Below are positions 3,251-21,627 of a stretch of 60,965 bases of DNA, piece after piece. Location: the NCBI RefSeq assembly GCF_004010195.1, contig NC_057759.1:3329878-3390842 (forward strand). The letters run 5' to 3'. Within the stretch, counting starts at the first letter, position 1. Every line of letters starts with the position of its first letter. Below the pieces are notes generated by a model. The model had not been told where the DNA came from, did not search any database, and was given only the letters and a program-made list of their open reading frames with translations. This stretch comes from Chiloscyllium plagiosum (Eukaryota). Made by a program: the position numbers and the translations under genes.

Positions 3251-4229
3251 TTTAATTTTCCCAACATTGACTGGGATACACTTAGTGCCAGAGGTCTGGA
3301 TGGGGCAGAATTTGTAAGAAGCGTCCAGGAGAGTTTTCTAGAGCAGTATGTCAATAGTCTGATGAGGGAAGTGGCCATATTGGACCTGGTTTTGGGGAAT
3401 GAGCCAGGCAGGTGGTAGAAGTTGCGGTGGGGGATTTCTTTGGGAACAGTGACCACAATTCTGTAAGTTTTAGAATACTATTAGACAAAGATGAGAGTGG
3501 TCCAAAGGGAAGCGTACTCACCTGGGCCAAGGCCAATTTTACCACAATTAGGCAGGAGCTGTGAAATGGGGATTGGACATAGCTCTTTGAAGGGAAGTCC
3601 ACATTTGATATTTGGGAGGCTTTCAAAGATAGGTTGAAAATAGTGCAGGATAGGCATGTCCCATTGAAAACAGGGGTTCGGGAAAACCAGAATCGTGAAC
3701 CATGGATGACAGGAGAAATCGTATGACTAGCCATGAGGAAAAGGGAAGGATACATAAGGTGCAGGCAGCTAAGAACAGAACGGGCCCTGGAGGAATATCA
3801 GGAGAGTAGGACCATTCTTAAACGAGGAATCAAGCAGGCTAAAAAGGGTCATGACATTGCTTCAGTGAGCAGAATTATGGAGAATCCCTAAGCCTTTTAT
3901 GCTTAAATAAGAAGCAAGCGGGTAACTATAGAAAGGATTGGTCCACTAAAGGATAAGGAAGGAAGGCAGTGTGTCGAACCTGAGAAAATGGGGGAGATTC
4001 TGAATGATTACTTGGCATCAGTGCTCACGGAGGAGAGGAACATGATGACTGTTGAGATTAGAGGTTGAAGCTTGATTACTCTGGATCATGTTGACATAAG
4101 TCGAGAAGATGTGTTAGGTAGGCTAGAAGTTATTAAGGTGGACAAATCCCCAGGACCGGACGGCATTTATCCCAGGTTGCTAGGCGTGGCGAGAGAAGAA
4201 AGACCCTGACGGATATCTTTGTAGCATCA
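3251..4229 (+). mobile_element. CR1 LINE ORF2 endonuclease-to-RT linker (plus-strand arm of an inverted CR1)
   Basis: Runs from FNFPNIDW at 3251 through GNSDHNSV to DKSPGPDGIYPRLL at ~4141-4182. Confidence 0.88.
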
Positions 4230-5783
4230 GGTTTTCTTCCTCCAGACTTTAGGTGGTTATATTAAAGTAAGATTTGAGACGGCCCAGGGAATCCCTTGTG
4301 GCCTCTCTCTTGGTTCGTCCCAGAGATCATACTCTTTGGAAGTCCGGAATAAAAACCTCTGATAAACAGTTTAGTTTAATTTTAGTCATCTCCTTTATTC
4401 ACTATTAGCATCACTATTACAACATAACACTGATACCTAGAAGCTAAACTAACTAGGCCCTAATAACCTAGGAGAGTAGAGTACCAGCTCTTCAAGTGCC
4501 CTAGCAGGTTACTCCGATGTACTGCTACAAACTGGCTTCCTTTATACAATAGTTTACAAAAACATTGCATGTTCTTAATTAGACAGATAACAGTGAAAGA
4601 CAATAATTTGGAAGAAAGCAAATTTAACTGATATATCTGTGTGCGCTTGACTGATCACTCCCACAGGACTTGAGCTATCCATCAGGTGGGAAAAACATAC
4701 CCAGCTGAGTTAGGCATCTGCTGGAGTGATAAGTTCCTATAAAGAAGTACCAGTCTAAATTAAATGGGAGATGTCATAAGGTAACCTTGCACAGCTCGCA
4801 TGTTTGACATCATTGTTTTACAAATTTGCTTCTTAGCGAGGAACGCAAACTTGACCACAGTGACTTCCCAGCAGATTGTGTCAGAATCTCGTCGGTGTTA
4901 GGTTTAGAATAATTTTAGGCTGTGAGCAGATTCCTGCTTTTTATCTTCAGCACAGAATCATTCTGTACCTGAGGCTGAAATGTTACCACAAGGTTGTATT
5001 TAAAATGATTAATTAGTCTCGAATTAACCATACCTTCTTTTCAAGTTTGTGATTCAAATTCAAATAAAACATAAGATCTGACTTGTTAAAATTGACAGTA
5101 GGGCAGTCTGTTAGGTGTGTAGAGTGGTCTGCAAGAACAGTAAGTAAGTTCATTAATATTAGCTTTTGCAGAGTTAGTATTAGTAACTGGTAATGGCTAC
5201 TCAATATTGTCATAGAGTCCCAAAATGCAGTTAAATTCAATCCATAGCAGATAAGCACTAAGAGTTAATTTTCTACAGGCTCCAATACCCTCAGCACTAA
5301 AATGGTCTCCCTCTGTCATGTCCTTTTGAACTCCAGTCAGCAATGTTTTTTTTCTTTCTCTGTGTCCGCCCCGCTTGCAAGGGGTAAAGTGAATCCATTA
5401 TGATTGGCAGCATCCGACCGTTAATTACAAAGATTTTGATAGTACCGTGTTTCATTTCAGAGTCACAATCAAACACTCTCTCATTAATTTCACAAGGGAA
5501 TGGCTGTGAATGTTATGACTTGGTATCCTGTTCACACCGATTCACCAATGCTAAGGCAAATGTTCTTAATTGCCTTACAGCATCCTGTTATCACTTGGTG
5601 AGCCCAGATGTCCCTATCTTCTACGTTCCTCGAGATCCCCCTTTTTCTGAGCCTTCCTGCCTGTCTATTTTTTAGTGCAGTAAATGTGTTCTATAATTCA
5701 GCATTATGTTTTAGTCTAAATGTTTAAAGACAGGTTTTAAGGCTATAGACATTCTTATTTCCTTGTTTTGTCATTTCATGACA
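4230..5783 (-). repeat. ERV 3' LTR (~1.5 kb)
   Basis: Direct-repeat homology of ~4400-5750 with ~10525-12260. Candidate TGTCATG start at 5783 and AATAAA on the minus strand (tttatt 4394-4399). Ends approximate. Confidence 0.75.
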
Positions 5784-5859: not shown

Positions 5860-6843
5860 GAGTCATCGTCCGGAGGAGCAGAATCTGAAAAATACTGGAT
5901 TTCAGCATGGAGGTTCAAGCATGGATGTAGAGGGGGAAACATGAGTCAATTAATCAGATTCCTCTTTGGCTTAGGTGAATGGCAATGTACGGTCCATTTC
6001 ATGCATAAGTGGACAGCACTGTATCATCCTAGGATGAAACCAAGGATTATCAGTACATCCCACATGGGATCCATCCTTACAGTGACCATAGGCAGCAAGT
6101 AAAACTCCATCCGTAACTCGGATGATGGTGGGGCAGGTACCTTCCCTGCACCTTGACGCTTTTTGTTGATGACATCTGTGTTGTCCAAAATGTCTTTCAA
6201 GAAATCATCGATGTAGGTGCAACTTTGCAGGCCAATGACTGAACAGGCGTCTCCTTCTTTAGCAAGGAGGAAGTCTAGCACTTGTAGATTCTGAAGCGTC
6301 ATCATCCGAGTCTCCTGTAACTTTTAGTTCACCAGTTTCAAAACATGGGCAGTAGAGTTGGCAAGATTTGTGATATCATATACAAGATTACTTATCTGAT
6401 ATAGGGCCATCTCAACTCCCCAGCCAGGAATAATGCCTCCCAGCAAACTGGACCACCAGGTTTGTTGATGGAAGAAGTTGTCAGTCCCATTTTGTTTTTC
6501 TTCTACTTATTGTTTCAAACTGATTCATCTGCTGGTGGGTGTTCCATTCATCATCTACTTCAGGCATCTCATAGTGGGGGGTGAAAAGTGGTAAGGGCAT
6601 TAGAATGATGGCAGAGTAAGCAGATAACACATGGGTCGGGGGCTTAGCTTGAATAAAGAAAACATTAGTAACAGGAGGAGGATTGGGAGTGCATAGTATT
6701 TTTGGTCTTTCTTCATCTTTCCAGCTTGTCTTGTTAATTACTGTAGCTACTGAATACAGGAAACGTATAAAGGTATTTCTGTCAGTGGCGGTAGGTTGGA
6801 TAGGATAGGATTCCGTCAAGAAGGTATAAGTGGTCAGTCTCAT
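5860..6843 (-). pseudogene. env: ERV env remnant (SU core with internal deletion, cleavage site, TM)
   Basis: SU-start-like NTFIRFLYSVATVINKTSW, basic site SRRKTK, fusion peptide WWSSLLGGIIPGWGV, and immunosuppressive domain LQNLQVLDFLLAKEGDAC...SCTYIDD (degenerate CX6CC). Contains stops and frameshifts. Confidence 0.9.
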
Positions 6844-6995
6844 GGCAATAGGTGCCTTCGGGTTTGGTGATTTCTGTACTATGTGCTTAATACTGCAATC
6901 TGTTACTGCAATCTGTATGGTTCATTTTGAAAAGGGAACAGACAAGCATCTCAAGGTAGCAATTTGCGGTTGACAGAATGGACGAGGTTATGGAA

Positions 6996-7316
6996 TTATG
7001 CTATCTCGATGACTGGCATAAAAGTGTTGCAAGGATGACAATAAGGTCGAGAGTGATGTTTGGATACGCAATGTAAGTAGTTTAAATGAGTTTCAGCTGG
7101 GCAGCTGCATTCATAACTTCCAATGGTATTAGTACAGGTATCATACATACAGTCACATTGGAGTTTTAGCTGGTCTGAGTTATCACAGAAGGGTTGGTTA
7201 CATTTGGGCGCATGTACTTGGGTTGGGCTTTCATCGGATGCCTGTATCAGGACTAACACTAGAACTGTGAGGGGGTTACAAACTTGCAATGTCCTTTTTA
7301 AACCCATGTTGAGCAT
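6996..7316 (-). CDS. ERV signal-peptide plus EGF-like cysteine-rich ORF (env N-terminus or accessory gene)
   Basis: Hydrophobic LTVLVLVLIQAS followed by CNQPFC...CDCMYDTCTNTIGSYECSCPAETHLNYLHC. Matches the EGF Asx-hydroxylation pattern C-x-N-x4-Y-x-C-x-C at 7101-7136. Confidence 0.65.
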   Translation of the reverse strand: MLNMGLKRTLQVCNPLTVLVLVLIQASDESPTQVHAPKCNQPFCDNSDQLKLQCDCMYDTCTNTIGSYECSCPAETHLNYLHCVSKHHSRPYCHPCNTFMPVIEIA

Positions 7317-7399
7317 CCTTCTACATTTACTGCAGTTTCAGTTGTCAGAAGAACTTGATAAGGACTTTTCCAGGGGGTCCCAATTTCCCACAATTAAAG

Positions 7400-8400
7400 T
7401 CTTTCAATAGTATGTAGTCACCAGGGTTAATGTCTTTAAACATTGGAGCTCTTTCTTCTTCCTTCCCTGGTATCTGATAAGCTTACTTGACTTCTTGATG
7501 ATAAGATAGTACACTTGGATCGGCTCAGGCTTGAAGGGCCAAAGGGCCTGTTCCTGGGCTGTAAATTTTCTTTGTTCGTTCTTTGTTCTGAGACTGCCAT
7601 GCTTTTGTTAGCTTAATAAGGTACCTGTGCATCTTTTCTGCCATGAAATGCACATCCACAGGGTGTTGGGCAGTTAATGGTGCAGACCAGGGAGTCCTCA
7701 AGGGCTTTCCATATATTAGTTCAGCTACCGAGAATCTTGTCTTTTTCTGTGTCATGGATCTCATATTAAAAAGGGCGATTTGGAGTACTTGCAGCCAATT
7801 AAGGCCTGCTTCTTCTACCAATTTGCTTAGCTGACATTTTAGGGTACCATTGGCTCTTTCTACAATTCCCACTGCTTGGGGATGGTTGGCACAATGGGAT
7901 TTTTGATTCATATTCAAGCTCTTATAGTTCCTTGTTTAGCTCCACACAGAAGTGGGGGCCATTATCAGAAGAGACAGTTACTGGTATTCCAAATCTGGGT
8001 ATGATTTCCTAAAACAGAATTTTACAAGTAGTTGTTGCTGTGCAGTCAGTACAGGGATAAGCTTCAATCCATTACTAAATACATCGATTATCACTAAACA
8101 ATACTTATAACCATGGCATTTAGCTAACTATAAAATCTAACTGGATAGTATCAAAAGGTGCACTTGGCAAGGGAGTTTCACCTGGTGGATACTTTATTCC
8201 TTTCCCAGATTATACTTTTGATGAATTAGGCAATTTGCAGATACTTGTTTTGCTTTTTCTTGCTGGTGGGAATTCTACCAAGATTGGAGAATTCTGTCCA
8301 CCATTCCCTCCATACCTACATGTGTATGCGTATGAACATAATCAACTAGAATAGGCAAAAGTGAGTAGGGCAGATGTCTGTCCAACCAGTGTAACCCAAA
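7400..8400 (-). pseudogene. pol: ERV pol integrase remnant
   Basis: HTHTHVG zinc-finger part, PFDTIQLDF, LVIIDVFS, IIPRFGIP..SSDNGPHF, and HPQAVGIVERANGTLK (ORF 7525..7917). Confidence 0.92.
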
Positions 8401-8443: not shown

Positions 8444-9400
8444 TTATCTATTCCCATCAGAGGCGTCCCCCTGCTGGGTCCATATTTGCTCTCGGTCTGG
8501 CATGGTTGGGGTGTCAGAAGAGGAAATAGGAGGGTCTCTCTTTAGTTTCCTATTTGTCATTTGAGTATCCATGTCTTTTTGCTCAAGAGCTGCTTTCTTA
8601 GCAGCTGTGTCAACAGCGTTGTTGCCTTTAGTGACTTCGAAAACATCAGAGGAGTAAGCAGAACATTTGATAATTGCCAATTGACAGGGAAATTGAATAG
8701 CAATGAGATTAGCATCATAGGCAGCATTGAGTTTAAGGGTTCCTGATGAGTTAAGGAAGCCGCGCTGCTGCCAAAGTTGAACAAAATTATGGGCACATCC
8801 AAAGGCATAGTGGAAATCAATATAGATGTTAGCTGACTTTCTTTTAGTAAGTATATAGGCACTGGTGAGAGCAAGGAGTTCAGCTTGCTGGGTGGAACAG
8901 GGTGTGTTGACAGAATAAGCTTCTAGTGTCTGGGGAAAAAGTGACAATCGCATATCCTGACAAGCGTTTGCCTTCTGGAGAGATAGAAGAAGAACCACCG
9001 ACATAAAGTGTAAGGTTTGGGTTAATAAGAGCCTGATCGGTAAGATAAAGACGTGGTTTAGTAACAAGGTAATTTATGAGAACACAATCATGGGGAGCAT
9101 CAGGCAGTTTAAGATGTTCTCCCTGTAGGAATGTAACCGGGTTAATGTGAGAGCAGTATTTAAGGAGAGAAGCGTATTCTGAGCTGAGTACGTTTAGAGG
9201 TAAGCAAGAATATTGCAGAATGGAAGGTACAGACTTCTACATTTAGATGTAAAGTTCTATTAGAGGCAGCCAATCCCATAGTATGGATGGCTGGGAGAAT
9301 CTGGGTGCAGTTTTAAAATAATCATGTAGAAACTACATGTCCTTACTACTTTAATGAATTAAATGTGGTACCAGTAGAATGCCACAGGCTGTCTGTAAAT
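8444..9400 (-). pseudogene. pol: ERV pol tether and RNase H remnant
   Basis: QQAELLALTSA, IYIDFHYAFG, LWQQRGFLNSSG, AIIKCSA and GNNAVDTAAK, with upstream PHDC and QPVAFY. No RT core or protease seen. Confidence 0.9.
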
Positions 9401-9499: not shown

Positions 9500-10461
9500 C
9501 TGGTTGTTTTAAAGTTGAACTGAAATACTTTTTTTTGAAAAACTAGCAAGGTTTTGGTTCTTTCAGCAGTGCATCATTTTCTTTCACTGTCTGGTTAGAG
9601 TACGAACTGATATTAAAAGCAGCAGTGAGATTTGATCAAAATCTGTGGCCTTAAATTCACTCATCTGTGCAATTGCAAACTCCTAACACACGGTGACAAG
9701 TGATTCATTGGGGAAAGGGCATGGGTCTCAGCACATTGGTCCTCAGAGTAGGGAGGGGGGTTCAGGCGACTTTGTTTTATGAAGTGTGTTCGCCTTGGCT
9801 GTACTGTGGGTGAGTTTTGAGGAGGTCGGCTGACAGGAGGAGAGGCATTAAATATTTCCTTCTCCAAATCAGAATCCCATTCCTCATGCACAGATGGATC
9901 CGGATTCTTTATGGATCTTTGGGAGAGGGGAGGATGAGGTATAAGGAACAGTCTCTGTCTTTCGTCTGGTCCTGCCCTGGCTGCAGCCTGTTCTTATTCT
10001 TATTTCATTTTCATTGGGGCCCCTGACATTTCAGCATTTCTAAATCTTTGCTTTCCTTTTTTTTCTAGCCAATTCCAATTCTGCTTCTAAATCATATGCT
10101 TCACATTTACGTTTTAGTTCTGTCCAATTTAATTCAGATCCTTCCTCAGTTAATGAACTAATTCCCTATTTTAATACAGTTTTGTCTCCATGATGATTTG
10201 CATGGATTTTTCCTATTTTTCCCTAGCTACCTTTTTCTACACTGATATGACTTCTTTCTGCTTACTTCCCTTTTTTCCCCAAATCCTTTGTTCAATTTTA
10301 ATGAGTAGAGTTAAATCATGTGTGCCTCCTAGAGACCAATCCTTGTCTTGTTGAGCAGCTGCAGCCGATATTCCCTTTAATTGTTTCTCATAGTTAGGAT
10401 ACAGACTTATTATTTCCATTTGAGGACATTTGTCTTTCATCTTATCTAGAGTTACACCCAT
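9500..10461 (-). pseudogene. gag: ERV gag N-terminal remnant (matrix and late domain)
   Basis: MG start (myristoylation-type), WSLGGTHD matrix-like motif, and PPPY late domain at ~9748-9760. Capsid and nucleocapsid not recognisable. Confidence 0.75.
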
Positions 10462-10726
10462 ATTTATCCTACCTACTTTAAATCTTCACAAAACTACTGA
10501 TCTACAGGGGCACCAACCCCAATTCACCAATAGCATCACTGTTACAACATAACACTGATACCTATAAACTAAACTAACTAGGCTCTAATAACCTAGGAGA
10601 ATAGGGTACTAGCTCTTCAAATGCTTTAGCAGGCTACTCTGATGTACTGCTACAAAGTGGCTTCCCTGTATACAAAAGTTTGCAAAAACATTGCATGTTC
10701 TTAATTAGACAGATAACAGTGAAAGA

Positions 10727-11000
10727 GTGCAGCAGGTCAGGCAGCATCAAAGGAGCAGGAGAATTGACATTTCGGGCATAAGCCCTTCTTCAGGAACCTA
10801 TAAACTAAACTAACTAGGTTATAATAACCTAGGAGAATAGGGTAGCAGCTCTTCAAATGCTTTAGCAGGCTACTCCGATGTACTGCTTATGCCCGAAATG
10901 TCGATTCTCCTGCTCCTTTGATGCTGCCTGACCTGCTGCGTTTTTCCAGCAACACATTTTCAGCTCTGGTCTCCAGCATCTGCAGTCCTCACTTTCTCCT
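10727..11000. mobile_element. Penelope-like inverted pLTR insertion enclosing a copy of target DNA
   Basis: Inverted gcagcaggtcaggcagcatc...ttcgggcataag arms; agataacagtgaaaga duplicated at 10711-10726 and 11001-11016. Confidence 0.8.
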
Positions 11001-11533
11001 AGATAACAGTGAAAGACAATAATTCATAAGGAAGAAAGGTTAATTGACAGATCTGTGTGCACTTGACTGATCACTCCTACAGGCCTTGAACTAACCATCA
11101 GGTGGGAAAAACATATCCAGTTGAGTTAAGCATCTGCTGGCGAGCTAAGTTCCTATAAAGTACCAGTCTAAATTAAATGAAAGATGTCATAAGGTAACCT
11201 TGCACAGCTCGCATGGCTGATATCATTGTTTTACCAAATGGCTTATTAGCAAGGAGGGCAAACTTTTAACCATAAAATGGCTTCCCGACAGATTGTGTCA
11301 GAATCTCTTCGATGTTAGGTGTAGAGTAATTTTAAGCTGTGAGCAGATTCCTGCTTTTTATCTTAAGCACAGAATCATTCTGCACCTGAGGCAGAAATGT
11401 TACTGCACAGATGTATTTAAAATGATCAATTAGTCTCGAATTAGATGCCTTCTTTTCAAGTTTGCAATTCAAATTCAAATAAAACATAAGATCTGACTAG
11501 TTAAAATTGACAGTAGGGCAGTCTGTAAGGTCT

Positions 11534-11762
11534 AGGCAAAAGTGAGGACTGCAGATGCTGGAAACCAGAGTTTAGATCAGAGTGGTGCTGGAAAAGCACA
11601 GCAGGTCAGGCAGCATCTGAGGAGCAGGAAAATTGACGTTTCGGGCAAAAGCCCTTCATCAGGAATAGAAGTCTATGAAGGGCTTTTGTCCAAAACGTTG
11701 ATTTTCCTGCTCCTCAGATGCTGCCTGACCTGCTGTGCTTTTCCAGCACCACTCTGATCTAA
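11534..11762. mobile_element. Penelope-like inverted pLTR (hairpin) insertion
   Basis: Inverted arms of about 90 bp; TSD agtctgtaaggtct at 11520-11533 and 11763-11776. Confidence 0.85.
11636..11663 (-). ncRNA. Minimal hammerhead ribozyme core (Penelope pLTR)
   Basis: Minus strand reads CCTGATGAAGGGCTTTTGCCCGAAACGTC: CUGAUGA, stem II GGGC/GCCC, GAAAC, GUC. Confidence 0.75.
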
Positions 11763-12663
11763 AGTCTGTAAGGTCTGCAGAGTGGTTGGCAAAAACAGCA
11801 AGTAAGTTAAAGCTTCATTAATATTACCTTTTGCAGAGTTTGTAATTAGTAACTGGTAATGGCTACTCAATATCATCATGGAGTCCCAAAATGCAGTTAA
11901 ATGCAATCCATAAAAGATAAGCACGAAGAATTAAATTTCTCCAGGCCTCAGCACTAAAATGGTCTCTCCCTCTAGTGTCCTTTTGAACTCAAGTCATTAA
12001 TTTCACAAGGGAACGGCTGTGAATGTTATCACTTGGTGTCCTGTTCGCACAGATTCACCAATGCTAAGGCAAATGTTCTTAATTGCCTTACAGCGTCCTG
12101 TTATCTCTTGGTACGACCAGATGTCCCTATCTTCTGCATTCCTTGAGATCCCCCCTTTTTCTGAGCCTTCCTGCCTGTCTATTTTCTGGTGCAGTAAATG
12201 TGTTCTATAATTCAACATTACATTTTAGTACATCTACAGCCTTAAAACATTTAAACTAAATTAAGGTTCGGTGATGGAGGAGGCCCAGGACCTATATGTC
12301 CTTGCAGGTGTGGGAGGGGAGTTAGTGTTCAGCCACATGACAATGGGGTTGCTTGGTGCGGGTATCTGAGAGATATTCTCTGAAATGATTCGCAAGTTGC
12401 TAACCTTGCTAGCCAGTCTCCTATGAGGAACCTTATCGAATCCCTTACTGAAGTCCTTATAGATCATGTCCACCGCTCTTCCCTCATCAATCCTCCTTGT
12501 TAATTCTTCAAAAAACTCGATCAAGTTCGTGAGACATGATTTTCCATGCATAAAACTATGCTGACTATCTGGAATCAATCATTGCTTTTCCAAATACATG
12601 TCCTCCTCCATCGCCAGGCTCACCAGTCTATAGTTCCCTGGCTTTTTCTTATCACATTTCTTA

Positions 12664-14552: not shown

Positions 14553-16009
14553 CCCAGTCTATGTTTGGAAAGTTAAAGTCCCCGACCATAACTATCCTAT
14601 TCTTCTTACAGATAGCTGAGCTCTCCTTGCAAATTTGTTTCTCAATTTCCCTCTGACTGTTAGGGGGTCTATAATATAATCCCAATAAGGTAATTATCCC
14701 TTTCTTATTTCTCAGTTCCACCCAAATAACTTCCCTGGATGTATTTCAGGGAATATCCTCCCTCAGTACAGCTGTAATGCTATCCCTTATCAAAAACACC
14801 ACTTCCCCTCCCCTCTTGTCTCCCTTTCTCTCCTTCCTATAGCATTTGTATCCTGGAACATTAAGCAGCCAGTCCTGCCCATCCCTGAGACATGTTTCTG
14901 TAATTGCTATGATAACCCAGTCCCATGTTCCTAACCATGCCCTGAGTTCATCTGCCTTCCCTGTTAGGCCCCTAGCATTGAAATAAATGCAGTTTAATTT
15001 ATTAGGCTACCTTGTCCCTGCCTGCCCTCACTGTTTGACTCGCTTCTGTTCTCAACTGTACCAGTCTCAGATTTATCTCTTTCCTCACTATTTCCCTGGG
15101 TCCCACCCCCACCTTACTAGTTTAAATCCTCCTGAGCAGCTCTAACAAATTTCCCTGCCAGTATATTAGTCCCCTTCCAATTTATGTGCAATCCGGCCTT
15201 GTTGTACTGGTCACTTCTACCCCAAAAGATATTCCAACAATCGAAAAATGTGAATCCATCTCCCAAACACCAGCTCCTCAGCCATGCATTCATCTATTCC
15301 TGTCCTCACTAGCTCGTAGCACCGGGAGTAATCCAGACGTTACTACTCTCGAGCACCTTCTTTTTAAATTCCTGCCTAACTCTCTGAAATCTCCCTTCAG
15401 AATCTTAACCTTTTCCCTTCCTATGTCATTAGTTTCAATGTGGACAATGACCTCTTGCTGGCCCCTCTCCCCCTTGATAGCATTCTGAAACAGCCTTGAT
15501 CCTGGCATCAGGAAAGCAATACACCATGCTGATTTTTCACTTCTGATCACAGAAACGTCTGTCTGTACCTCGGACCAGAGAGCCCCTAACACAATTTATC
15601 TCTTGGAACCCGATGTATCCTTCATTGCATTAGAGCCAGTCTCAATACCAAAATCTTGGCTGTTCGTGCTATGTTCCCCTGTGAATCGATCACCCTCTAC
15701 ATTTTCCAAAACAGCATACTTGTTTGAAATAGGGATAGCCACGGAAGACCCCTGCACTAGCAGCCTACCTCTCTTACCTTTCCTGGAGTTAACCCATCTA
15801 TGTGACTCTATCTGTGACTTTTCCCCCTTCCTCTAATTGCCATCCATCACATACCGTCGCTGTTGCAAATTCCTCATTGCCTCTGTCTCTCCAACCAATC
15901 CATTCGATCTGATCGGATTTGCAACCAACAGCATTTATTACAGATATAATCCACAGTAACAGGTAAACTCTCCTTAAACTCCCATATCTGATATATTGAC
16001 AACTCACTA

Positions 16010-17390
16010 CATTGACAGGTACAGACTGATAGCAACAGTCACTTAAGAAACTGACAGGTACAGATTGATAAATAACTCACATCTGACTATAAAACAATTG
16101 ATAACCACACTCAAATGTTGACAGCACAGAAACTGAATACAACACTCGCATTCTCAAAGCTGAAACTGACCATAACAGAATAATACTAACACTCCTGGTT
16201 TCACGTATCAAAATGTACCTCTCAGTTTTTGATAATTATACACACACAGTCACGAAGCAGGAACTGACAGGGATAGATTAATAATTAAATTCACATTATT
16301 ACTTAGATTAGATTACTTACAGTGTGGAAACAGGCCCTTCGGCCCAACAAGTCCACACCGACCCGCCGAAGCGTAACCCACCCATACCCCTACATTTACC
16401 CCTTTACCTAACACTACGGGCAATTTAGCATGGCCAATTCACCTGACTTGCACATCTTTGGACTGTGGGAGGAAACCGGAGCCCCCGGAGGAAACCCACG
16501 CAGACACGGGGAGAACGTGCAAACTCCACACAGTCAGTCGCCTGAGTCGGGAATTGAACCCGGGTCTCTGGCGCTGCGAGGCAGCAGTGCTAACCACTGT
16601 GCCACCGTGCCGCCCCATTATGACACAGCAGAAACTGACAGGAATACACTGACAGCTGCACTCATACGTTCACATAGCAGAAAATGACAGGCACAGATGG
16701 GTAATCACACTGACACAGAAGAAACGCAGAAAATGACAGGCACAGATGGGTAATCACACTGACACAGAAGAAACTGACAAGAACAGGTTGGCAACTATTT
16801 GCATATTAGAAACTGAGAGTTATGGATTGATACCTAAACTTTCACGTTCACACAGCAGGAACTGACCGGTACAGGTCAGTAGTGACTCTCACTACTTCAC
16901 TCAGCAGAAGCTGGCAAGTACAGATTGATAATTGTACTCAGGTATTCATCTAGCAGAAGCTGATAGGGAAAGTTGAGAACTACAATCACTCATTCACAGA
17001 GCAGAAAGTTTATTATAACTGGATAACTAGACAGTCTTATTCATGTAACAGAAAGTATCAGGTACAGTTTGATAACTACGCTCCCAGTTTCACATTGCAT
17101 AACCTGATGGGTACAGGTCAAGAATAAGACTCTCACATTCACACAGCAGAAACCACACTTTGTCTGCATTTATACATTTACTCCACAGAAATTGTCAATT
17201 ACAGATTGATAAATACATGTTCATATTCGTATTGTAGAAACAGGTAGAGACTGATAATTATTCTTTCACATTCACATAACAGAAGCTGGCAGGGATAGGT
17301 CATGCTCCCGTTTTCACTTAGAGATGGAAAGTGATAGGGCAAGCTAATCCTCAAAAAACCTGAAACTCTGAACAGCACAGCACAGGTCAC
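16010..17390. repeat. Degenerate ~50-bp minisatellite (agaaactgacaggtacagattgataa...cacattcacacagc)
   Basis: The motif recurs many times, including a near-exact ~49-bp tandem pair at ~16677-16775. Confidence 0.75.
16304..16617 (-). mobile_element. HE1-type SINE
   Basis: Reverse complement of the SINE at 23802, with a ttagattagatt tail. Confidence 0.9.
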
Positions 17391-20284: not shown

Positions 20285-20745
20285 ACAGAGTGCAACAGTG
20301 CCTCAGTATGAAATCTCTGACAGTGCATCAGTCCCTCAGTACTTACCTTATATCAATGCGGCACTCCCTCATCACTGATCCTCCAACAGTGCATCACTTC
20401 CTCAGTTCTGATCCTCCAGTGTGGCACTCCCTCAGCACTGACCCTCAGACAGTGCGGTGCACCCTCAGCACTGGCCTTCCAACAGTGTGGCAGTGTCTCA
20501 GTGTTGCCATTATGACGGTGCGGCACTCCCTCTGGTGCAGCACTCCCTGAGCACTGACCCTACATCAATGCGGCACCCCCTCAGCACTGACCCTGTGACA
20601 GTGAGGCACTGCCTCAGCACTGACCTTCGGATGCTATGGCACTCCTTCAGTACTGATCCTCCAACAGTGCGGCACTGCCTCAGTTCTGACCCTTTGACAG
20701 AACGCCACTTCCTCATCACTGACCCTCCGACAGTCCCACGCTCCC
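20285..20745. repeat. 33-bp minisatellite (cagtgcggcactccctcagcactgaccctccga)
   Basis: More than ten diverged tandem units; the 11-aa periodicity of overlapping ORFs (TDPPTVRHSLS) reflects it. Confidence 0.88.
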
Positions 20746-21627
20746 TAGAATCATTTATTAAAATCCTTATTTCCTGTTTAACAGCAGTGTCTGCTGCCCA
20801 TCCCAAATGCCCTTTCTGATGGCAATTAAGTGTCATCAAGGTGAGAGTAGAACTGGAGTCACATGGAGCAATGTCCTGTAAAATCTGCATCTCTTAGTCT
20901 GAGCAAGTGAAGGGGCTGCATTATTCCTCGTGCTGATTGCAGGCCTGGGAATTTGGGGCCACGCAGGAGAAAGTGACTGAGGAGGGTAATGTCACTAAGA
21001 AGGCTTGATCAGATGAAGGTGGCTGCTGGCTGACTGTGTAGGGGAGATGAATGAACAAGATGGGATTCTTTAGTAACTGCTGAGTGATTCTCAATCACTG
21101 TCACTGACAGTTTCCAATGGTTTCAAACACCAGTAAGTACATGAATACAGTTAGTCTATTGCTAACTCAGAATTCCAGACACAGCTTGCCACAATGTAGC
21201 ATTCATATGTGTACAACAATCAAAACATTATTTGTGCACTACCCAGGCCCTGGTTCCCTTTGTGAAAGACACATCGGTTACGCAATGTGTCTTTCACAAA
21301 GGAACAAAATGGGTGGGAGTAATTTGGTAGTTTATAAACCCATAGAAAATGGAAAAAGGAGTCGGCCATTCGGTCCCTCATGCCTAAACCATCATTCAGT
21401 AGGATCATAGCTGATCTGACATTCCTGATGTCCACTTTCCTGCACTTTCCCTTGATTTCCCCAAGTAAGCAGGAATCTGTCTCCACCTTCAATATACACA
21501 AGCACTCTAGCCCCCACTCTCTGTGGCAAGGAATTACAAAGACTCACAACCCCTGAGGGAACGAATTCCTCTTCATCTCAGACTTAAATCTACATTCTTT
21601 TATCCTGAGACTGTGCCCTCTGAGCTT

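Follow-up and report, generated by a model that had tools for sequence, protein, structure and literature searches.

A host-type EGF and mucin-like module at the N-terminus of a shark retroviral envelope family, truncated to a hybrid form at a Chiloscyllium plagiosum locus

We analysed a 60,965-nt stretch of the Chiloscyllium plagiosum genome (contig NC_057759.1, positions 3,329,878 to 3,390,842), referred to here as the window. It contains a provirus of about 7.9 kb on the minus strand, flanked by LTRs at approximately 10522-12270 and 4397-5751 that differ by 10.3% mismatches across aligned blocks. An earlier note, made from the sequence alone, had placed its subject inside an endogenous retrovirus (ERV), and the LTR-bounded element confirms this. 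The features of the provirus are the following:

10522..12270, minus strand: 5' LTR, a direct repeat with 4397-5751, interrupted by short repeat insertions; outer edge approximate
9911..10493, minus strand: gag remnant (blastn against L068 and L045)
8447..9269, minus strand: RT connection and RNase H remnant (Pfam RNase_H, E 5.9e-09)
7260..8400, minus strand: integrase, broken, its 3' end overlapping the env start (translation)
7507..7590, minus strand: 84-nt later insertion within the integrase (a gap relative to all seven copies spanning the site; repeat family D11)
7239..7307, minus strand: probable Env start and signal peptide (ATG conservation; strongest N-terminal hydropathy peak)
7146..7202, minus strand: N-terminal half of a Cys-rich cap with four Cys (kept in 30/35, 34/36, 33/36 and 33/35 short copies)
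7144..7146, minus strand: junction left by the 543-nt in-frame deletion characteristic of the short form (copy comparison)
7068..7143, minus strand: C-terminal half of a calcium-binding EGF (Cys 3-6, C-x-N-x-x-G-S-Y-x-C-x-C; Pfam, PDB, alignment)
6996..7010, minus strand: frameshift and stop cutting the env frame (2-nt indel near 7008 relative to L002)
6481..6995, minus strand: SU remnant with the CxxC region, lacking about 440 nt of SU at about 6597
5982..6476, minus strand: gamma-type TM remnant, broken, with ISD, CX6CC region and membrane anchor (61% identity to the TM of L013)
4397..5751, minus strand: 3' LTR, direct repeat; edges approximate

The 3' part of gag, the protease and the RT are mostly deleted: about 640 nt remain where a fuller copy has about 4,600 nt, a loss of about 4 kb. 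The integrase of a relative, L032, matches rve (E 4.9e-13) and MLVIN_C (E 7.1e-11), and the RT fragment of another copy, L031, matches MLV-type p80 chains at E 6e-19 and foamy chains at 3e-15. Because the RT is closest to MLV-type structures and the integrase C-terminus is of the MLV type, the element is classed by sequence similarity as a class I (gamma/epsilon-like) ERV. The window copy is a dead, multiply deleted provirus, likely without a host function. The 84-nt insertion in its integrase resembles the 3' tail of a repeat seen three more times in the first 30 kb. Degenerate tandem arrays lie outside the provirus at 15996-17215 and 20288-20747 (periods of about 40-49 nt and 33 nt).

The minus-strand frame from 7337 to 6996 is free of stops and contains a hydrophobic stretch and the sequence C-T-N-T-I-G-S-Y-E-C-S-C, so that the frame, the hydrophobic stretch and the C-x-N-x-x-G-S-Y-x-C-x-C-type motif described in the earlier note are all present. 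Across its six frames the window has a single EGF core motif, and 100 shuffles produced none. Four EGF-clan Pfam models match the ORF, every one below its cut-off (best E values 0.0038 for EGF_3 and 0.022 for EGF_CA). A PDB search with the ORF recovers fibrillin calcium-binding EGF (cbEGF) pairs at E 6e-5, its top row being a designed repeat protein matched through a short word. The bounds originally proposed for the ORF, an ATG at 7316 and a gene end at 6996, hold less well than the open frame itself. The ATG at 7316 is found in 22 of 50 copies of the family, with a CpG decay pattern elsewhere, against 34 of 45 copies for the ATG at 7307, and 7307 is therefore the likelier Env start by copy comparison. 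The frame breaks near 7008 through a 2-nt indel relative to the natural copy L002, against which the window carries further lesions. Judged by this alignment, the stop at 6996 is a lesion private to the window copy and no gene end. The window ORF is the 5' end of a class I ERV env rather than a separate gene.

Searches of the shark's own genome gave at least 43 matches at the DNA level (40 of 129 candidates scored) and at least 153 at the protein level (150 of 307 candidates scored). The earlier note had named three observations that would speak against an EGF module: no EGF profile match, cysteines not conserved in other copies, and a segment absent from related proviruses. None of these was made. 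All 30 loci fetched first have the EGF segment.

Natural copies show how the frame continues. L002 has a 259-aa open frame that leads from the signal peptide via the EGF into the SU, past the point at which the window frame breaks, and in L031 an open frame of 357 aa covers signal peptide, EGF and SU; open frames cross the EGF-SU border also in L016, L023, L027 and L029. In a motif test on 60 copies, 46 were testable; 32 of these have the two motifs, EGF and SU, in a common frame, and 21 are stop-free in between. Among the codon columns from EGF to SU a stop is never the majority, the highest count being 13 of 59, at a CpG site. Hydropathy analysis detected no second hydrophobic segment of equal strength before the TM. 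Fusion of the module to the Env N-terminus, one of the two possibilities raised in the earlier note, is thus what natural copies with EGF and SU in one frame exhibit. The module uses the sole strong N-terminal hydrophobic segment, in agreement with the note's remark that no separate signal peptide was seen ahead of the SU core.

The marks of gamma-type Envs are CxxC in the SU, CX6CC, an ISD and a membrane anchor (available text of PMC9967133). In the family, both Cys of the CxxC are present in 34 of 50 copies and all three Cys of the CX6CC in 29 of 43; an ISD lies ahead of the CX6CC in the TM, and the C-terminal membrane anchor has a hydropathy of 2.9. A furin site R-x-K-R occurs in the natural copy L047, its last position being strongly decayed in other copies. 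TLV_coat matches the TM of L013 at E 2.5e-07; a match of this value, above cut-off, came from one of three TM frames tested. By its CxxC, ISD, CX6CC, basic site and anchor, the family env qualifies on sequence as a gamma-type Env. As a control we took two gamma-type envs of this genome that are unrelated to the family (35-39% TM identity class); they have a TLV_coat match and no EGF match. No EGF-free version of the family env was found that would delimit the insertion; the eight TM-bearing loci without EGF are without upstream env entirely. Among the copies examined there is no intact env of this family.

The protein collection (longer proteins only) gave no match to the window ORF or to a TM frame as queries. 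A phmmer search of the L002 frame against 1.84 billion representatives returned three matches, all generic EGF-repeat proteins and none an Env relative, and the viral contigs searched contained no relative of the family. In one poly(A) single-cell run, of which about 2% was read, 22 reads fell on a copy of the long form described below; none of them reached 95% identity and none covered the EGF region. The stretch of about 95 aa that separates the EGF from the SU core (window 7040-6790; L031, L033 and L034) contains four conserved Cys. Pfam, the representatives and the Atlas gave no match to it, and it is a candidate novel receptor-binding domain. An unrelated gamma-type env at L071:1343-2749 (minus strand), with a 469-aa open frame from signal peptide to tail and degraded gag-pol adjoining, is a member of a second, multi-copy ERV family.

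Many of the protein-search matches start only at the EGF, and fetching 20 of them exposed a long form of the env, for example in L031, whose Thr-rich stalk and second EGF the earlier note had missed. Its order is signal peptide, Cys-rich cap, Thr-rich stalk, EGF, consensus cbEGF, SU with CxxC, and TM with ISD and CX6CC. At least 25 loci contain the long-only segment. The stalk of L031 is 73 aa long, with 32% Thr and 45% Ser, Thr and Pro together, and the first 347 aa of this copy contain 10 N-glycan sequons. The first EGF begins with C-x-x-C-H. The EGF pair alone exceeds the Pfam EGF_3 cut-off of 28.5 bits in 6/6 frames (29.9-39.2 bits), and EGF_3 passes in 3/7 of the longer frames; each of the 12 EGF Cys columns is kept in 15-20 of 20-23 long copies. 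Cys spacing and Pfam score indicate that the pair consists of EGF-like domains. The full cbEGF pattern, applied as D/N-x-D/N-E before Cys1 plus C-x-N-x4-Y-x-C after PROSITE, is found in L034, L041, L044 and L045 and in no short-form copy (70 loci). By this pattern the second domain is a putative calcium-binding EGF; its best Pfam EGF_CA score is 24.4, below the cut-off of 27. The cap weakly resembles stabilin-type EGF (EGF_STAB1-2, E 0.0045 and 0.0085 in two of four frames, below cut-off). AlphaFold2 models have mean pLDDT values of 32.2 (L031, long) and 35.0 (L002, short), too low to inform on the fold, and the ESM Atlas gave EGF clusters at 0.89 for the EGF pair, which we take as a lead only, and nothing for the SU (0.75).

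Among 70 env-region loci, we classified 23 as long and 37 as short and left out 10 in which the region is missing or interrupted; some of the loci are probably assembly or segmental duplicates, such as L050/L058. Relative to L031, the short copies lack 543 nt (181 codons) in frame. The junction, at 7146/7144 in the window, is identical in 32 of the 37 short copies and within 15 nt in the remaining five, and an extra 504-546 nt is present in 17 of 19 measurable long copies. The two ends of the deletion lie in similar sequences in register, each just ahead of a third-position Cys, with a likeness of about 12/18 nt by eye. Twelve cysteines are removed, and two cap Cys come to stand before Cys 3-6 of the cbEGF, which gives a hybrid of six cysteines with a C-x-C start. 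This joining of cap Cys to the C-terminal half of the cbEGF accounts for the atypical spacing of the first two cysteines that the earlier note had pointed out. The deletion also takes out the N-terminal calcium-binding motif, and no short copy matches the cbEGF test. The label "calcium-binding" originally given to the window domain is not supported: the domain is a deletion chimera without that motif. EGF_CA is matched by 6 of 14 short frames, below cut-off (best E 0.0029). Further partial deletions of the module are found in L034 and L043. Since the long form has complete canonical domains and the short form half of one, a change from long to short is the likely direction, the tree being unrooted. 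The similar in-register deletion ends would fit a template switch during reverse transcription.

This unrooted tree rests on 1,036 columns shared by 46 copies; the other 14 of the 60 were excluded for incomplete coverage. It unites the 14 long copies in one clade (support 1.0, branch 0.087), and both groups are nearly star-like. The median divergence from the per-column yardstick is 6.8% for the 14 long and 6.7% for the 32 short copies, which points to similar ages of the two groups; a shark mutation rate of 7e-10 per generation is given for one species in the available text of PMC10587355. The long and short subfamilies have different LTRs. Unrelated LTRs surround near-identical internal sequence in the window (4397-5751) compared with L045:5600-7000 and L037, pointing to an LTR swap by recombination between subfamilies. 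The window falls in a small C50 subclade that also lost the ~440 nt of SU; this deletion is the same in five short copies, and a matching joint occurs in organism B. Members of the window subclade (L001-L006, L010) cluster on one 8-Mb contig, G000:C50, with shared extra deletions, which suggests local amplification of a defective element there. In the sequencing run of organism B, a contig covers L031 3304-4055 (long form) and a second one passes over 3451-4087 (short-like); in that of organism C, one piece reaches into the long-only segment, which a contig bypasses. Both forms are represented in these runs.

We counted variation against the commonest codon of each column. Within subfamilies, pN/pS is 0.69-1.08 with many stops, a near-neutral decay as expected after insertion. 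Between subfamilies, dN/dS is 0.15 in the integrase (p 1e-5), 0.22 in the C-terminal SU and TM (p 6e-5), 0.41 in the N-terminal SU (p 0.035) and 0.15 in the retained C-terminal half of the EGF (2 N, 5 S; p 0.017). The constraint is not significant in the mid-SU (0.58, p 0.12) or in the signal peptide and cap (0.60, p 0.31). The EGF value, from seven changes in one of six regions tested and assignable to neither the long nor the short side of the branch, is suggestive of constraint on the retained half. The low values between subfamilies indicate that the env was constrained while the virus replicated, and from this purifying selection we infer a role of the Env in fusion and entry.

The origin of the module was sought by profile and DNA searches. 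All 25 matches of a profile search of the protein collection are EGF-repeat proteins, mostly animal, with 29-52% local identity, and of the PDB chains uromodulin alone can be aligned without interruption across the two domains, though weakly (E 0.033). The shark's own genome yielded no donor gene, the best host EGF domains reaching at most 21.8 bits against 21.2 for a chance match to the viral profile. A cbEGF-array gene (C9), a SUSD1-like gene (C2) and five further weak matches were considered as donors and none is close; a match at L095 is due to chance, as are most of the 495 matches of a DNA pattern search of the genome. The C2 gene (L096:4446-4682 / L129:1782; G000:C2, ~112.18 Mb), which we take to be SUSD1-like, has the same EGF-then-cbEGF order as the virus and scores only 13 bits. 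The C9 gene has two giant exons of tandem cbEGF repeats (L091:3746-5947 and L092:926-3622; G000:C9, ~28.62-28.63 Mb), with open frames of 734 and 899 aa; cbEGF repeats usually come one per exon. Because the genome contains such giant multi-EGF exons, the absence of introns from the module is no proof of capture. We infer a host origin from domain identity.

In the full-text literature searched, which leaves most subscription papers outside its coverage, we found no natural Env with EGF domains. The term "EGF" is absent from the available text of bioRxiv 10.1101/2021.11.23.469661, PMC6001957, PMC4299795, PMC9967133 and PMC4977317, and "mucin" from that of bioRxiv 10.1101/2021.11.23.469661 and PMC9967133. 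As far as these partial texts describe them, the Envs of anamniote gamma-type ERVs resemble the present family in CxxC, basic cleavage site, ISD, CX6CC and anchor (bioRxiv 10.1101/2021.11.23.469661; PMC9967133), and the ERVs in an env start that overlaps the pol end and in an MLV-like RT and integrase. Unlike them, the family has an N-terminal extension of ~330 aa made up of cap, Thr-rich stalk, EGF and cbEGF. It may be among the shark ERVs catalogued in bioRxiv 10.1101/2021.11.23.469661. Captures of host genes by ERVs include, in the available text of PMC4299795, crocodilian KIT ligand as an extra ORF and nectin3 as an env replacement, and, in that of bioRxiv 10.1101/2021.11.23.469661, amphibian OGFr as an insert in pol. 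The present family is like these cases, so far as they are described there, in that a host-type coding sequence in the provirus was co-amplified under purifying selection. It differs from them, with their named donors, in having host-type domains inside a complete Env and no donor found.

The v-sis, v-mpl and v-sea genes of acutely transforming retroviruses are in-frame env-oncogene fusions that use the env signal peptide, destroy Env and need a helper virus. The family shares with them host-type sequence in frame with env, and unlike them retains a constrained SU core and TM. In filovirus GP, a glycosylated, Ser/Thr-rich and partly dispensable mucin-like domain sits on a gamma-type fusion protein; the shark module has a comparable Ser/Thr-rich, partly dispensable segment, whereas filovirus GP is without EGF. 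The arrangement of a C-x-x-C-H first EGF followed by a cbEGF recalls the pairs of uromodulin, SUSD1, ADGRE (CD97) and fibrillin, with identities of 30-50%, which do not establish orthology. Engineered EGF-MLV Envs indicate that N-terminal EGF display is compatible with Env folding (available text of PMC3265223). Unlike the natural family, these chimeras are artificial and carry an EGFR ligand, which cbEGF repeats are not.

Our favoured reading, which we consider probable, is that the ORF represents the 5' end, now broken, of a gamma-type env whose EGF domains, accompanied by a Thr-rich stalk in the long form, were likely captured from an animal gene for a cell-surface or matrix protein and likely served as a disulfide-bonded, glycosylated spacer and shield in front of the SU core. 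An ancestral retrovirus would have packaged a host mRNA together with its own RNA, and recombination would have brought part of that mRNA into env. The fused Env would still have served entry, and both subfamilies may have spread by infection, since the env was under purifying selection between them. The short form would have arisen from the long form by a template switch in reverse transcription that retained a six-cysteine hybrid EGF. The module would be structural rather than an essential receptor-binding part, because two thirds of it were lost in a lineage that kept spreading. The role of a heavily glycosylated extension acting as spacer and shield, perhaps host-like to the immune system, is suggested by the loss of stalk, first EGF and calcium site while the lineage spread with a constrained TM, and by the retention of the EGF half that abuts the next domain.

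The main rival is attachment: the module would be a borrowed host adhesion unit that bound a host partner, and the short hybrid would keep or change this binding. EGF pairs mediate binding in CD97-type and fibrillin proteins, chains of which are among the weak PDB matches, and the retained EGF half is constrained. The module also occupies the SU N-terminus, the usual site of the receptor-binding domain in gamma-type Envs according to the available text of PMC9967133. However, the short form, deprived of stalk, calcium motif and first EGF, yet reached an at least equal copy number; the ~95-aa Cys-containing domain between EGF and SU core could be the true binding domain; and MLV Env engineered to display EGF conferred binding but no infection (available text of PMC3265223). 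We therefore think attachment rather unlikely. It is improbable that the module was a tolerated passenger, captured once, never useful, kept against free cysteines or misfolding and lost stepwise. The viability of losing most of it, the further deletions in L034 and L043, the weak constraint on cap and mid-SU and the even number of cysteines removed (12) would suit such a history, but the long form gave rise to at least 25 loci, most copies retaining the full set of 12 EGF Cys, and a retroviral env rarely retains useless sequence for long.

Convergence of a viral Cys-rich region on an EGF-like pattern, with nothing taken from a host, would agree with the lack of a donor and with the low confidence of both structure predictions. 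Against it stand two tandem domains with 12 Cys in EGF spacing, Pfam scores above cut-off, the cbEGF motif and the in-register, if weak, alignment with uromodulin over both domains, and we deem it very improbable. The other possibility in the earlier note, a separate secreted accessory protein encoded between pol and env, could draw on the putative signal peptide and terminal stop of the window ORF. That stop, however, follows the indel private to the window copy relative to L002, no column between EGF and SU has a majority of stops, and an equally strong second hydrophobic segment is missing before the TM. The natural frames open from the signal peptide through the EGF into the SU refute an accessory protein unless a regulated truncated product exists, and its probability is close to nil.

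A more far-reaching reading can be put forward only tentatively. It holds that a working Env bore a host EGF/cbEGF-plus-mucin module as a mimicking attachment arm or camouflage, and that a later template switch, between two EGF-like repeats, produced a hybrid EGF from which a second successful lineage, with another LTR, descended. If true, the family would match in nature what ligand-display envelopes achieve by engineering, and would be direct fossil evidence for domain shuffling in a receptor-binding region. The SU N-terminus is the most variable part of Env, and its origins are mostly untraceable. The module, which is family-wide and more elaborate than first read, comprises host-type EGF and mucin-like parts, the window holding a truncated hybrid form. 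It bears on the question of how retroviral Envs acquire new N-terminal host-facing domains. With dozens of fossil copies in two forms, both under selection and one clean in-frame deletion apart, the family offers a natural before-and-after comparison of domain gain and trimming in an Env, and would add a new kind of host capture, within a complete Env, to the published extra-ORF, env-replacement and pol-insert cases.
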